Source: an uncultured Actinomycetota bacterium (GTDB lineage Bacteria; Actinomycetota; Aquicultoria; SKW223; CALKMS01). Taken from it: a stretch of 64,000 nucleotides of DNA. The number at the start of each line of letters is the position of its first letter. Within the stretch, counting starts at the first letter, position 1. A program made the position numbers and the translations under genes. The notes under the pieces are model-generated. The model had not been told where the DNA came from, searched no databases, and saw only the letters and a list, made by a program, of their open reading frames with translations. Location: the NCBI GenBank assembly GCA_964426525.1, contig CAYRQL010000001.1, forward strand, positions 130,294 through 194,293. Direction: 5' to 3'. Shown in pieces: positions 36,789-41,612 of the stretch.

Positions 36789-36955
36789 ATTTAGTAACAC
36801 CAAATGGGGAGTTAAATCGTTTATAATGTTAGAAATAATTTAAAAGTAAATTCTTTTGTTACGATAATATATGTTATGTAAACTAAAATAATGTTTGTTT
36901 TAAATTTTTAATTAGGTAAAATAGAGTGGTATAAAGAAGGACGGTTGAAGAGGAA

Positions 36956-37588
36956 ATGGCAAAGTTTTATGAAGACTATTGCGATAGAGCTTGTGGACAT
37001 TTAAAGCTTTCTGAGAGACGTTGTTTTCGCAATGAATGTCACCTGAAAAATTTTTTTGATGAGCTATTGTTGAAAATACCTAAAGATACTATGTTGAGTC
37101 TTTCGGATACCATTAGGGCTCTTCAATTAGAAAATGATTTAAGAAATACCCGTTATGGAAGCTTAATTAAACAAGTCAACCTTAAAGGTCCTACCCTATT
37201 AATTAACTTTGATGATTCTGTTCTTTCTGCTGAAGATAAAATAAAGTTAAACTTTGTTAATCCTGACGAAGTGCTTATTATTTCTGCCTATCGTATTTTA
37301 GTGACTAATCCTCAAATTCATGAGTTTAAGCTATCTTGCGCTCTTAAAAATTTACCTGAGGTAAATTTGGTAACCACCCGACATCGGCTGATTGAATTAA
37401 TTTCTCATAGTGGTATGAGTGAAATTAAGAGAGATTGGAACGCAATTTGGAATTACTTCCGTCCAGTCCTAAACAATCCCGAGTTTGCTGATAAGGTTCG
37501 CCAATTTTTGAATGGTTATTCAAATGACAACCCAATCGAAATTCAGAGTCAGGAATCGCCCGGTTGGCTTAATAAGTTTTTGAAATGA
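36956..37588 (+). CDS. Hypothetical protein with an N-terminal Cys/His cluster (C-x3-C-x-H ... C-x4-C-H), probably metal-binding
   Basis: 210-aa ORF. N-terminus MAKFYEDYCDRACGHLKLSERRCFRNECHLKN. AAGAGGAAATG Shine-Dalgarno site. No family recognised. Confidence 0.45.
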   Translation: MAKFYEDYCDRACGHLKLSERRCFRNECHLKNFFDELLLKIPKDTMLSLSDTIRALQLENDLRNTRYGSLIKQVNLKGPTLLINFDDSVLSAEDKIKLNFVNPDEVLIISAYRILVTNPQIHEFKLSCALKNLPEVNLVTTRHRLIELISHSGMSEIKRDWNAIWNYFRPVLNNPEFADKVRQFLNGYSNDNPIEIQSQESPGWLNKFLK

Positions 37589-37596
37589 TAAGATAA

Positions 37597-38415
37597 ATGA
37601 AGAAAGTTGCTTATCCCATAACTTATTATGCTTTTACACGAGAAGCTATTTTCTATCTAATTCTTTTATTATTAATTTTGGTTCTTTCTCTTTTGCCCTT
37701 AAATTTGCTGGCCGCCATATCTGTTTTCCTTTTTATCCCGGTTATTTTAGCTTCAGCTTTTTGGTTTAAAAATGGTGGTTTTTGGGCAGGAATAGTTTCT
37801 GCTTCTATCTTAATAGCTGTTTTTGTTGCGGTTTTTTTGGCTGATTTTTCTTTTTCTCCCCTGGCAACTCTTTCTTTCTTTTTGGTCATACTTTACCCGG
37901 TTGCCGGCTGGTTTTTGGGGCAAACTGCTCAATCGGTATCAAATCAATTTGGCGAACTAGAGCAACACAGATTGAGTAGCGCGATTAGCGCTATTTATAC
38001 AAAAGAATATTTATCAAATCTTATTCATAAATATATTAAAGAATACGAAAGATATAAAAGTAATTTTTCTATTATTTTAATGGAGATTGATCCCAAAGCT
38101 ATGGAAGCAGTAAGTGCTTTTCGGCGAGAACATATACTAAGTGAAATCGCTTCAGTTATAAGGAAGAATATAAGAACAATTGACGAGCTTGGTCGTTATG
38201 AAAATCAGTTTTTAATGGTTCTTCCCCATACTCCTTTTCAGGGTAGCCAGGTTGTTGAGGGAAGGGTTAAAAACTTGATTTTAAAAGTCTTACAAAGTCA
38301 TGGTTGCGAACCAACCTCTGAACAGATTTATGCTGCTGCTGTTTCTTATCCAGAAAATAAACAGGGCATGGAAAAACTTCTTCATGCCCTGGAAGAACCA
38401 ATCTCTTTTTCCTAG
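37597..38415 (+). CDS. Membrane-anchored (about 4 TM) degenerate GGDEF-domain protein. Active-site motif RYENQF in place of RYGGEEF. Retains an RxxD I-site.
   Basis: Hydrophobic N-terminal 110 aa. C-terminal region aligns to the GGDEF fold (SIILMEIDPKAMEAV... RTIDELGRYENQFLMVLPHT). The I-site RTID sits 3 residues before RY, the same spacing as RAIDLPCRYGGEEF in PleD. Confidence 0.55.
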   Translation: MKKVAYPITYYAFTREAIFYLILLLLILVLSLLPLNLLAAISVFLFIPVILASAFWFKNGGFWAGIVSASILIAVFVAVFLADFSFSPLATLSFFLVILYPVAGWFLGQTAQSVSNQFGELEQHRLSSAISAIYTKEYLSNLIHKYIKEYERYKSNFSIILMEIDPKAMEAVSAFRREHILSEIASVIRKNIRTIDELGRYENQFLMVLPHTPFQGSQVVEGRVKNLILKVLQSHGCEPTSEQIYAAAVSYPENKQGMEKLLHALEEPISFS

Positions 38416-38432
38416 TAATTTTCCTAGTAATT
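38409..38432 (+). repeat. Tandem 12-bp duplication (TTCCTAGTAATT x2) spanning the stop codon of the GGDEF-like gene
   Basis: Exact repeat. The TAG stop at 38413-38415 is duplicated at 38425-38427. Confidence 0.75.
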
Positions 38433-38436
38433 TAGT

Positions 38437-38877
38437 TTACTTTTTGCCTTCGACCTCTTTTTTTATAGCGTCTATTTTGCTTTTAATTTCTTCAAGCTCA
38501 GCTTTAAGTTTTTTAACTTCTTCTTCTTTAGCCTTTATTTCTTCTTCCTTAGCTTTAACCTGAGCATCTAACTCATCAATTTCTTTCTTTCTCTCATTCT
38601 TTTTAATTTCAAGCCGGCGCTCAAGTATTGATGAGATTAAAGCTTCTTCTTCTGGGTATTTCTCAAGGCATTCAGGCCCTACCGAATGAACCATACTGCC
38701 AACCTGGACTTCTTTTCCTTTAATAATCTTGCGGGCGTCCTTGTAAAGTTTGTAGGTGTCCCCTTCTAGAATGTAGTACTCAGCATAAACCACACTGTCA
38801 GCGTCGCAAAGAAAACACTTTTCCGCTTTTTCAACTTCCTTTCCATTTTTGAAATCATACTCGAAATATACTCCCAT
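38437..38877 (-). CDS. Hypothetical small protein, paralog 1: N-terminal MGVYFEYDF...CFLC domain plus a C-terminal E/K-rich coiled coil
   Basis: 146 aa. Shares about 40% identity over the first 90 aa with the ORF at 39606-40019. The C-terminal 50 aa are almost pure K/E heptads. Confidence 0.5.
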   Translation of the reverse strand: MGVYFEYDFKNGKEVEKAEKCFLCDADSVVYAEYYILEGDTYKLYKDARKIIKGKEVQVGSMVHSVGPECLEKYPEEEALISSILERRLEIKKNERKKEIDELDAQVKAKEEEIKAKEEEVKKLKAELEEIKSKIDAIKKEVEGKK

Positions 38878-38908
38878 TTTAACCTCCTTTATAAAAAAAT
38901 ATTTCTTA

Positions 38909-39613
38909 CTAAATTAAGATAGAATGGCCCGGTTCAAGAACTTTTCCTTCAAAACCCCTTTCTTCAATTTGAGAAAGAAACTGAGCAGGGTCAACCTGGC
39001 GGGACTGATAAATGCCAGCGGGGAGATTATAGTGCATAGGGATAGCAATACGAGGCTTAATTTTGTCAATAGCCATAATAGATTCCGTCAAGTCCATTGT
39101 CGTTCCACCACCAATCGGTATAAGCAATAAGTCCGGTCTCCATTCTTCCCAGTCATCCCTTAATAGAGTTTCGCCTAAATGGCAAATTGTGCGCTCTTCC
39201 AAAGTAATAAAATAACCAAGCCCTTCAGGTGTTGCACTTTTTCTTTTAAATAAGCTCCTCAATCCTCCCCCAATTTGTCCTGGTGAAGCTTTAAAAGCCT
39301 GGATTTTTACCCCAAGAATATTAATTTCTTCCTGGGATTTTATTGCTTGAAAATTAACATTCTCCACATCGATGTGCTCTTTTAATTCCTCAGGTCCCAC
39401 TACAACCTTAAAACCTGAAGAAATAACTGACGGGAGAGCTCCTGAATGGTCTTCGCCAATCGAAGTTACTAAAACTAAATCAGTATCGCTGTATTCTTCC
39501 TGACGAATAATTGGATTTTCTTCTGGGATGGCTTTCCCAGGGTCAATTATAATTTTAACTGTTTCACCCTTAACAACGAAGGAAGAATAGCCATAAAAAA
39601 CTACTCTAACCAA
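38909..39613 (-). CDS. Metallo-beta-lactamase-fold protein (UPF0173-like) with a degenerate HxHxDH motif
   Basis: YGYSSFVVKGETVKIIIDPG start and DLVLVTSIGEDHSG (only the DH of HxHxDH is kept). Later His/Asp residues (IPMHYN) remain. Overlaps the upstream paralog gene by 8 nt. Confidence 0.6.
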   Translation of the reverse strand: MVRVVFYGYSSFVVKGETVKIIIDPGKAIPEENPIIRQEEYSDTDLVLVTSIGEDHSGALPSVISSGFKVVVGPEELKEHIDVENVNFQAIKSQEEINILGVKIQAFKASPGQIGGGLRSLFKRKSATPEGLGYFITLEERTICHLGETLLRDDWEEWRPDLLLIPIGGGTTMDLTESIMAIDKIKPRIAIPMHYNLPAGIYQSRQVDPAQFLSQIEERGFEGKVLEPGHSILI

Positions 39614-40019
39614 CTTTACCCTCCTTTGCTTTTTCTAAGTGATAATATAGCTTTCCCAATCGCTCTACTAACTCCAAGAACTCTTTTTTGGTTTCTTCGA
39701 TTTCTTTTTCGATTGTTTGTGTTTGAGAAGTGATTTCTGTCTCCTTTTCTTCTTTTCGTCGCCTAATAATCTCTGATACTAAACTTTCCTCGCTCCCATA
39801 TGTGTTATAGCAGTCTTCACAAATCATATATTCAGCACTTCCTACTTTGATTTGATGCCCACTATGAAGTTTTCTTGCATTGTCATATAGAGAATAAACT
39901 AACCCGGTTTTTATGTGATATTCGACAAAAAGCACTTTTTTTTGTTCACAAAGATAACAGGGAAACCACCTTTCAACTTCTTTTCCCTCTTCAAAGTCAT
40001 ACTCGAAATATATCCCCAT
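39606..40019 (-). CDS. Hypothetical small protein, paralog 2: MGIYFEYDF... with two CxxC pairs (CYLC ... CEDC, zinc-ribbon-like) plus a coiled-coil tail
   Basis: 137 aa. The conserved N-terminal block is MG[VI]YFEYDFxxGKEVE...CxLC...EY.I..G..Y.LY.NARK...G...VGS. Confidence 0.5.
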   Translation of the reverse strand: MGIYFEYDFEEGKEVERWFPCYLCEQKKVLFVEYHIKTGLVYSLYDNARKLHSGHQIKVGSAEYMICEDCYNTYGSEESLVSEIIRRRKEEKETEITSQTQTIEKEIEETKKEFLELVERLGKLYYHLEKAKEGKVG

Positions 40020-40070: not shown

Positions 40071-40385
40071 TTAAATGCTTTTTGGTAAAAAAAGATATTT
40101 TTTTTCCAGTTGGCTTTTGGTTAAAGTGGTTAAATCCTCTTGTATTTCTTCAAAAGCTCTGAGCGCTTTATCTTTATCAACAAAATACCGCCAAGGATAA
40201 ACGATCTTAGTTTCGAGGTCAACAAATTCGATCAGGAATTTTCGCAGGCTCTTTCCTTCTTCTAATGGAGGCGGAAAATAAGAAATGCCTTCCTTCCAAT
40301 CAAGTTCGGCTGGAAACTCACAAATAATTTCAAAAAGCCTGACACGATAAAAATCATTAGCTGGGCCTATGACTTTGGTCATCAA
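40071..40385 (-). CDS. Hypothetical protein (104 aa), first gene of the minus-strand operon in the island
   Basis: ORF preceded by a 174-bp AT-rich spacer. No recognisable motif. Confidence 0.35.
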   Translation of the reverse strand: MMTKVIGPANDFYRVRLFEIICEFPAELDWKEGISYFPPPLEEGKSLRKFLIEFVDLETKIVYPWRYFVDKDKALRAFEEIQEDLTTLTKSQLEKKYLFLPKSI

Positions 40386-40559
40386 AATTATTCTACTTTA
40401 TTCTTCTTTTTAATCAACTCACTTTTAAACAAATTAACAAGAATGCTATAAAAAAATTCTATTAATCCATCTTTTCTGTTAGAAAGAGTTAAAAATGTTC
40501 TATTTCGTCAGATCTTATACCGAGTTGAAAATAAATGCTGTTCAGATTAAAATTTTAAA

Positions 40560-41612
40560 ATGATGATTAAAAAAAGTTTTATTAAGATTTTACTTTTAAT
40601 TTGTTTATTTTTATCTATCCCCTCTTTTAAATTACTGGCTGTTCCTCCATCCACTATTAGCGCACAGAGAGCTGAAATTGAAGAGATTAAAAGAAAAATT
40701 AAGCAGCTCGAGTCTCAACGTGAACTTTTGTCAGAGTATAAAGTAGCTCTGAGTAATCATCTTGAAGTGCTTAATGAAAGGCTTGCGTTAACCCGATTGC
40801 GATTAGACCGCACCCAAAAGTTTTTAAAAAAAGAAGAGAACATAGCCAATCAAAGAATTAGAAAAATTTACATCTATGGCGACCGTGGGGTTCTCCATCT
40901 TCTTTTGAACGCTCAGAGTTTCTCTGATTTTATTACCCGCTTTTATGTTATTTCTCGCTTGCTTCAAAATGACCAGTTAGTAATTCGAAAAATCGATAGT
41001 TATCAGCAAGAGATACAAAAGATTGAAAAAGAATTGCTGGAAGAAAGAAAAGAAAAAGACATTTTAAACGAGCAATACTTGCTGAACTTGGCAAAGCTTA
41101 ATCAAAAAGAAGAAGAGCTAAGAAAACTTTTAACTCAGGCAAACGATGAGCTTAAAAACCTTTACCAGCAAATGAGGCTTGCTTATGAAACATCTTTACG
41201 AAGAACATATAGTACTCCCGGTTACTTAGGTACAGTGGTAGAAAGATATGTTACAGTGGAGCCTTATCTAAACCAGTATTACCTAACTAGCGCCCAATTT
41301 CCAGCAAAATTTAAGGCCACTGGAAAAACTTTTTCAGTTTATTCAAGCTGGTATGGTCCGGGGTTTCATGGGCGAAGAACCTCAAGCGGAGAAGTTTTTA
41401 ACGAAAATGATTTCACCTGCGCACATAGAACTCTTCCTTTCGGTACGTTCCTGGCAGTGAAGTATAAGGAACGAAAAATAATTGTCAAAGTTAACGACCG
41501 CGGCCCATTTATACCAGGAAGAGACCTTGACCTTTCAAAAAGGGCAGCTCAAGCCCTTGGATTTTCAGGAGTTGTCAAGGTTGATTTTGAAATTGTTACT
41601 CCCCTACCTTGA
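40560..41612 (+). CDS. RlpA-like double-psi beta-barrel protein (septal ring lytic transglycosylase family) with N-terminal signal peptide and a long coiled coil
   Basis: C-terminal block SSWYGPGFHGRRTSSGEVFNENDFTCAHRTLPFGTFLAVKYKERKIIVKVNDRGPF, which is the RlpA DPBB signature. N-terminal hydrophobic leader. Confidence 0.7.
   Translation: MMIKKSFIKILLLICLFLSIPSFKLLAVPPSTISAQRAEIEEIKRKIKQLESQRELLSEYKVALSNHLEVLNERLALTRLRLDRTQKFLKKEENIANQRIRKIYIYGDRGVLHLLLNAQSFSDFITRFYVISRLLQNDQLVIRKIDSYQQEIQKIEKELLEERKEKDILNEQYLLNLAKLNQKEEELRKLLTQANDELKNLYQQMRLAYETSLRRTYSTPGYLGTVVERYVTVEPYLNQYYLTSAQFPAKFKATGKTFSVYSSWYGPGFHGRRTSSGEVFNENDFTCAHRTLPFGTFLAVKYKERKIIVKVNDRGPFIPGRDLDLSKRAAQALGFSGVVKVDFEIVTPLP

Follow-up and report, generated by a model that had tools for sequence, protein, structure and literature searches.

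We describe an operon of the order X-B-(MBL)-A, restricted to one lineage of Actinomycetota, in which a metallo-beta-lactamase-fold (MBL) protein that has decayed at its metal site would be the co-translated, non-catalytic partner of an assembly built from two paralogous proteins, A and B, a reading to which we give about even credence. The operon lies within a 64,000-nucleotide stretch of contig CAYRQL010000001.1 of an uncultured Actinomycetota bacterium, the whole of which is called the window below. Four co-oriented ORFs make up the operon (Table 1). The preliminary description of this DNA had placed the two paralogs and the MBL gene correctly, and its coordinates for them are confirmed, but it overlooked X, the upstream member of the operon.

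Table 1. Features of the X-B-MBL-A locus and its surroundings; positions are those of the window.
Feature	Position	Strand	Description
dif-like site	36857-36884		best match in the window
GGDEF-like gene	37597-38415	+	convergent towards A
A	38437-38877	-	146 aa; paralog of B; E/K-rich heptad helix
Shine-Dalgarno for A	38883-38889	-	AAGGAGG, in the 31-nt MBL-A spacer
MBL-fold protein	38909-39613	-	234 aa; UPF0173-like; degenerate di-metal site
B/MBL overlap	39606-39613	-	8 nt; MBL TTG start (39613-39611) over B TAG stop (39608-39606)
B	39606-40019	-	137 aa; N-terminal beta domain and C-terminal heptad helix
Shine-Dalgarno for MBL	39620-39626	-	AAGGAGG, within the 3' end of B, with a 6-nt gap to the TTG
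X	40071-40385	-	104 aa; first gene of the operon
X/RlpA-like intergenic region	40386-40559	-	174 nt; no conserved ORF; presumed operon promoter region
Sigma-70-like match	40417-40390	-	weak, 9/12 positions
RlpA-like gene	40560-41612	+	divergent from X

The sigma-70-like sequence in the presumed promoter region is a consensus match only and does not exceed the expectation from shuffled sequence. The sequence GGTGGGA is found upstream of the ATG of B, and the 8-nt overlap between paralog and MBL gene that had been reported earlier is confirmed. The Shine-Dalgarno sequence placed inside B agrees with the translational coupling proposed at the same time, and judged from this arrangement coupling from B to MBL is likely. 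A search against Rfam found no RNA families across the whole window.

When we aligned A and B with each other, residues 1-95 matched without a gap at 45% identity and 66% positives (E=2e-29), slightly better than the figure of about 40% over 90 amino acids on which their paralogy had been claimed. Over the first 49 nt the two genes share 84% of their DNA sequence. In both paralogs the N-terminus reads MG[IV]YF.YDF..GKEVE almost without variation, so that the common start read earlier as MG[VI]YFEYDFxxGKEVE is present in A and in B, and the CxLC pair said to be common to both corresponds to C21/C24. Together with C67 and C70 these residues form a full C4 site in B, invariant or nearly so in 18-20 sequences; with two CxxC knuckles at conserved positions, the B sequence has the makings of a C4 zinc ribbon or treble clef. 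The A protein of the window carries C21, C24, G67 and C70, three of the four zinc-site cysteines, and its H64, which is invariant throughout the A orthologs, could act as a substitute zinc ligand for the lost third Cys.

Modelling with AlphaFold2 from the family alignment gave a pLDDT of 89.6 for full-length B and of 89.2 for its N-terminal domain alone. The model consists of strands at residues 12-20, 27-38, 41-53, 55-59 and 62-66, a short helix at 68-74 and a long helix at 77-135, with C21/C24 in the hairpin between strands 1 and 2 and C67/C70 at the start of the short helix. Each paralog begins with a beta domain of roughly 75 residues; from the positions of these predicted elements, that of B would be a treble-clef-like C4 arrangement. 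The coiled coils that had been proposed for both small proteins are borne out by the long predicted helix and by heptad periodicity; hydrophobic residues make up 0.53 of the a and d positions of B and 0.65 of those of A, the background fraction being about 0.3. The C-terminal helix of B also holds the conserved motif E.EIEE.K...L...L..LY..L. The head domains of A and B are both acidic; charge complementarity between the two tails was sought, and none that was consistent was found.

None of A, B and X has a relative in Pfam, NCBIfam or PDB. When A and B were compared with curated small zinc-finger families (DUF4428, Prok-RING_4, Zn_ribbon_TFIIS and others), the best E values ranged from 7e-4 to 0.03, came from a minority of members and were sub-threshold; the zinc domains match nucleic-acid-associated zinc fingers weakly. 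The matches of A in PADLOC and PHROGs (LmuB, JetC, a tail protein) are confined to the coiled coil at residues ~65-145, and membership of A in a defence or phage family was rejected on this ground. The same two collections gave nothing for B, X and MBL besides a generic hydrolase PHROG. A defence system or phage origin was also rejected for the locus as a whole, which is syntenic core genome and not an island. With Pfam, NCBIfam, PADLOC and PHROGs yielding coiled-coil noise or sub-threshold zinc-finger matches, the arrangement fits no known system, as the preliminary description had it.

We assembled 23 related loci and classified them by tblastn and blastp. The order X-B-(MBL)-A was found in 23 of 23, with TrkA and RlpA on one side and dUTPase-NrdG-Trx-NrdD on the other, and an X ortholog lies directly upstream of B in every sufficiently long locus. 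G7, A9, F12, L17, P25, W30, P39 and A74 are invariant in the alignment of X. A profile search with X recovered 18 clusters in 5.8 billion proteins, in the same distribution as B, whose family comprises 18 clusters at 90% identity in 5.8 billion proteins. The exhaustive HMM search of 1.84 billion representatives returned 3 true clusters at 50% identity, and the candidate remote homologs from exhaustive profile searching, three spurious repeat proteins as the sole additions, were discarded. The genome records of the family belong to Ca. Geothermocultoraceae, Ca. Geothermocultor quzhuomuensis and unclassified Actinomycetota MAGs; on these searches X-B-A is restricted to Ca. Aquicultoria-type Actinomycetota (class Ca. 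Aquicultoria). That the small ORFs might be non-coding is ruled out by their orthologs in the 23 loci and by dN/dS values of 0.005-0.08 for the genes of the locus.

The MBL gene is confined to a Geothermocultoraceae-type clade. It is present in the window and in loci L004, L005, L008, L009, L010/16, L011, L012, L015, L017, L018 and L023, every one of which also has the GGDEF-like gene and a 210-aa gene downstream. In loci L001/2/3, L006, L007, L013, L014, L019, L020 and L021/22, which represent about half of the sampled lineages, B and A form a direct tandem with a spacing of -1 to +18 nt. The triad for which a search in other genomes had been proposed thus recurs, with MBL between B and A, in the loci that have MBL, but is absent from about half of the lineages. 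The idea that a duplicated accessory subunit flanks an MBL core does not survive this comparison: the invariant unit across the 23 loci is X-B-A and MBL is the variable add-on. Since X-B-A occurs in all loci and MBL is missing from many, the conserved core is the paralog pair together with X and not the MBL protein. None of the 23 loci yielded a second MBL gene. The MBL proteins share 37-48% identity at distances where B and A share 57-72%, so MBL evolves faster.

In a neighbour-joining tree rooted on the paralogs, the orthologs of A form one monophyletic group and those of B another, and the A/B duplication is therefore older than all of the sampled genomes. As to gain or loss of MBL, the A tree shows genomes with and without it as sister clades (support 73 and 52), and in the B tree those lacking it fall within the MBL-bearing group, at a low support of 11-46. 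The MBL-bearing clade differs at the locus also by the GGDEF-like gene, the 210-aa gene and W. When W was looked for in the window it was absent, and a relationship between W and the 210-aa protein was unsupported (E=0.37).

The MBL protein itself belongs to Pfam family PF13483 (Lactamase_B_3; E=2.6e-20, 73.4 bits against a gathering cut-off of 24), its residues 4-194 lying on profile positions 2-160. Against the UPF0173 equivalog NF001911/PRK00685 it scores 87.3 bits, under the cut-off of 144. Its closest relatives in the PDB are TM_1162 and Igni18, both at E ~1e-16 over the full length. In Igni18, two Zn are held by H54, H56, D58, H59, H118, D144 and H194, and the homologs with which it was compared have all seven ligands (PMC7846560). 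When we aligned the window MBL to TM_1162, Igni18 and canonical homologs, the ligand columns were occupied by S51, G53, D55, H56, P111/Q113 (motif 3), E148 (motif 4) and H194 (motif 5), and the HxHxDH of canonical MBLs was read as S51-I-G53-E-D55-H56. Three of the seven canonical ligands are kept. The degeneracy of HxHxDH that had been noticed by eye therefore holds on alignment, and the prospect that proper alignment would reveal a complete metal site is ruled out by the same count. The protein also has clade-specific insertions at ~113-131 and ~197-200 and a conserved EW.PD motif.

The orthologs form a series of ligand decay. Loci L005 and L012 have H, D, D, H, H, D, H in the ligand columns (6/7), and L011 has N, N, D, H, Y, D, H (4/7). 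In the window clade and in P0019/22/23/24 three ligands are left (S, G/S, D, H, P, E, H; 3/7), and in L009, L017 and L018, on three independent contigs, the columns read L, Q, E, Y, M, P, Q/H (0-1/7). Across the orthologs every ligand column varies, whereas 28 other, mostly structural, residues are invariant. Pfam scores drop with ligand loss, from 101 through 82 and 73 to 59 bits, all far above the cut-off of 24, and by this measure the MBL fold is kept in every version.

Purifying selection has acted on all four genes of the operon. We obtained dN/dS values of 0.03-0.04 for X, 0.016-0.038 for B and 0.005-0.037 for A. Between the ligand-less MBL genes of L009, L017 and L018 the ratio is 0.038-0.078 with unsaturated dS of 0.4-0.6, indistinguishable from housekeeping genes of the same genomes (dUTPase 0.066-0.111, RlpA 0.078). 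Comparison of the window-clade MBL with L004 and L008 gave a dN of ~0.10 and a dS of at least 1.6, a saturated value that limits the claim there to dN being far smaller than dS; the ratio computed between the MBL genes of L010 and L023 has no meaning, since the fragments do not overlap. A decaying pseudogene is ruled out, since every lineage has an intact ORF and purifying selection stays strong even in the 0/7 form. Because this selection persists in the ligand-less form, the MBL is, as far as its sequence can tell, a maintained pseudoenzyme as regards canonical di-metal catalysis. The earlier suggestion of a possibly pseudo-enzymatic protein is strongly supported, and is extended by a series of orthologs that runs down to 0/7 ligands under purifying selection.

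Ligand loss in MBL coincides with changes in the neighbouring genes. In every lineage whose MBL has three or fewer of the seven ligands, B and MBL overlap (-8 or -4 nt), and the two genes are spaced by +14 to +20 nt in the lineages with four to six. The change of the third zinc Cys of A to Gly is likewise found only in lineages with three or fewer ligands, so that ligand loss, the B/MBL overlap and the loss of Cys3 in A occur in exactly the same lineages. The A tree groups the window clade with L009 (support 94), and the lineages with three or fewer ligands probably form one clade. All three derived characters probably arose on one ancestral branch, and their joint occurrence is therefore counted as one event and not as a correlation. 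Their coincidence is suggestive of co-adaptation of MBL with A and B.

Two explanations in which MBL would not be a non-catalytic partner of A and B have to be weighed. The window MBL may still be an enzyme with a remodelled mononuclear site, and A and B unrelated to it or regulatory, which we think rather unlikely. A mononuclear site is still conceivable in the window lineage because all three site-2 ligands (D55, H56, H194) and E148 remain; these four residues, conserved throughout the window clade and P0022-P0024, could hold one metal ion. The replacement of the bridging Asp by Glu is conservative, and MBL-fold relatives with altered ligands bind Fe or a single Mn, for example UlaG (PMC7846560). 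However, site 1 has lost its three ligands (S, G, P/Q), the score falls under the UPF0173 equivalog cut-off, and the sister lineage L009/L017/L018 lost its ligands under equally strong purifying selection in the same operon position. Since the proteins of that lineage are conserved without them, the function of the ortholog group cannot need the ligand residues. It is also possible, though unlikely in our judgement, that the sandwich has no functional meaning, MBL having been inserted or deleted between tandem paralogs and being co-transcribed by position, independently of A, B and X. B and A abut in the many lineages that have no MBL, and the further differences of the MBL-bearing clade (GGDEF-like gene, 210-aa gene, W) point to general remodelling of the locus. 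Synteny is high over the whole region; these genomes share gene order all the way from MerR to NrdD, and the conserved adjacency could therefore be inertia. Yet the position between B and A was kept although MBL diverged to 37-41% identity, and an overlap of the B and MBL frames arose, with the MBL Shine-Dalgarno sequence within B. Moreover, a protein still constrained to a dN/dS of ~0.05 after the loss of its catalytic site needs a non-catalytic role, for which the co-encoded proteins are the simplest candidate partners.

The surroundings of the operon raise a further possibility. Long ORFs are almost all on the plus strand up to 38.4 kb and on the minus strand beyond, and the GC skew changes sign there too, so that the operon begins exactly where gene orientation and GC skew switch. 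The best dif-like site in the window, TGTTACGATAATATATGTTATGTAAACT, matches 22 of 28 positions of the B. subtilis dif and 19 of 28 of the E. coli dif (reference sequences from PMC3025954); the runner-up in the window reaches 20/28. The site is ~1.5 kb from the stop of A, and relatives have it in the corresponding location, which in L013 is ~90 nt beyond the A stop. The switch of orientation and skew and the nearby conserved dif-like site place the operon at a probable replication terminus. X, B and A, with or without MBL, might accordingly be terminus-associated proteins that act on DNA near dif, as a lineage-specific analogue of a fork trap or a terminus-organising system. The tus and rtp genes also adjoin their sites. 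We hold such a role to be very improbable, even with this location and with zinc domains that weakly resemble nucleic-acid-associated zinc fingers. No convincing Ter-like repeated motifs were found around the terminus, and the heads of A and B are, as said above, acidic.

Under the explanation we prefer, that of a decayed MBL partnering A and B, the two paralogs would hetero-oligomerise through their helices and form a coiled coil displaying two zinc-domain heads, possibly with X. The MBL would share their mRNA, with its translation coupled to that of B, and would serve as a non-catalytic binding or scaffold subunit of the A/B assembly, by analogy with INTS9 and CPSF100. Counting against a scaffold, the X-B-A module works without MBL in the MBL-less clade. 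A more far-reaching proposal, which we regard as improbable, holds that MBL was converted from an enzyme into a structural subunit of an undescribed Ca. Aquicultoria X-B-A complex at the dif-adjacent terminus, with the intermediates preserved and the partners co-adapted; in its boldest version the X-B-A/MBL complex may act on the chromosome terminus.

When we compared the MBL with systems already described, two groups came closest. The UPF0173 hydrolases (TM_1162, PDB 3X2Z; Igni18, PDB 6HRG) have the same single-domain MBL fold of ~230 aa, and the window MBL keeps the Asp-His of motif 2 and the PMHY of motif 5. It differs from them in having three of the seven ligands that catalytic competence takes (six to none among its orthologs), in its clade-specific insertions and EW.PD motif, and in its setting within an operon of small proteins. 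INTS9 and CPSF100, of eukaryotic 3'-end processing, are scaffold or binding subunits without catalytic metals in which HxHxDH and other motifs are mutated (PMC7980224). The MBL described here resembles them in the loss of catalytic metal ligands with the fold kept under selection. In contrast, INTS9 and CPSF100 are MBL/beta-CASP proteins of >600 aa that form heterodimers with the active paralogs INTS11 and CPSF73, whereas ours is a bacterial, single-domain protein of 234 aa without a beta-CASP domain or a nearby active paralog; comparison with beta-CASP families gave noise matches only (E 0.03-0.04). Its presumed partners, too, are unrelated zinc-domain coiled-coil proteins. A and B share their architecture with small zinc-ribbon or treble-clef proteins that carry coiled coils, a generic likeness exemplified by RING/TRAF/TRIM-like heads on coiled-coil stalks.

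Should the MBL be an unrelated passenger, the outcome would be a tidy annotation result of limited wider interest. Pseudoenzymes are usually recognised as end states, and here one operon position spans MBL proteins from near-intact to ligand-less. This makes a tractable natural series for asking what the MBL fold is kept for after catalysis, with selection measurable at its end point, and all of the versions are small and soluble and are candidates for heterologous expression. A further outcome is an undescribed, lineage-restricted family consisting of two ancient paralogs and X in a poorly known actinobacterial class, and its operon, lying beside a probable dif, offers a concrete lead into cell-cycle or chromosome biology peculiar to this lineage.

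Nearly every long ORF lies on the + strand between 1.5 and 38.4 kb of the window; beyond 38.4 kb, up to 64 kb, nearly every one lies on the − strand, and at the point where the orientation switches GC skew passes from positive to negative. Such a coincidence of ORF strand switch and skew flip is the signature of a replication terminus and points to a probable one at the convergence point (see table). When the whole window was scanned for dif, the top-scoring match was a 28-mer that shares 22 of its 28 positions with the dif of B. subtilis and 19 of 28 with that of E. coli (reference sequences from PMC3025954). Its core, GATAATATATnTTATGT, is kept at the equivalent relative position in related loci, although dS is saturated. 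A tandem 12-mer was also observed, which spans the final codons of the GGDEF-like gene together with the 21 nt that separate this gene from the stop of A, one of the two paralogous zinc-domain genes of the − strand operon.

The GGDEF-like gene encodes a membrane protein in which GRYENQF, one residue shorter, stands at the place of the GGDEF signature; this alteration is common to all orthologs in which the motif was located. With the degenerate metallo-beta-lactamase-fold protein (MBL) encoded right beside it, the protein would seem to be the second enzyme fold here that has degenerated. Its gene has a dN/dS of 0.04-0.09 and is, among the loci compared, limited to MBL-containing genomes. Across loci, strict co-occurrence links the neighboring 210-aa gene with both MBL and the GGDEF-like gene; the product of the 210-aa gene gave a single, weak match, to DUF7833.

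The first 49 nt of the coding DNA of A and of its paralog B are 84% identical, whereas identity over the rest of the genes is far lower. One possible cause of this likeness is that the N-terminal peptide, or else the region of translation initiation, is strongly constrained; another is occasional gene conversion.

In MBL-containing genomes outside the window clade, a fifth conserved gene, W, was observed directly upstream of operon gene X. The product of W is about 100 aa long, carries the motif YYN..CY....C.HC.DC and had no Pfam match; the gene is missing from the window, from L004 (a member of the window clade) and from every MBL-less locus. An additional gene for a PcsB-coiled-coil protein with an NlpC/P60 domain is present in one related locus, L012, so the peptidoglycan-hydrolase neighborhood of the operon is variable.

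Coordinates of the features in the window and in related loci (L numbers)
Feature	Location	Strand	Remark
Orientation switch	window ~38415-38437		ORF strand and GC skew
dif-like 28-mer TGTTACGATAATATATGTTATGTAAACT	window 36857-36884	+	within 460-nt intergenic region, dUTPase/210-aa gene
dif-like site, relatives	L004 9121-9146; L005 9185-9210; L008 2810-2835; L009 8079-8104; L011 4027-4052; L012 8330-8355; L013 6019-6044; L017 3635-3660; L018 6578-6603; L021 4481-4506		
210-aa protein	window 36956-37588	+	Cys/His-rich N-terminus MAKFYEDYCDRACGHLKLSERRCFRNECH
GGDEF-family membrane protein	window 37597-38415	+	Pfam E=1e-6
Tandem 12-mer TTTTCCTAGTAA x2	window 38408-38431	+	exactly at convergence point
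Similar 5′ segments	window 38829-38877 (A); 39971-40019 (B)		
W	L005 5324-5644; L009 4373-4663; L010 4320-4616; L011 51-350; L012 4227-4535; L018 2874-3164		
Second PcsB-coiled-coil protein, NlpC/P60 domain	L012 1843-4189		between RlpA-like gene and W
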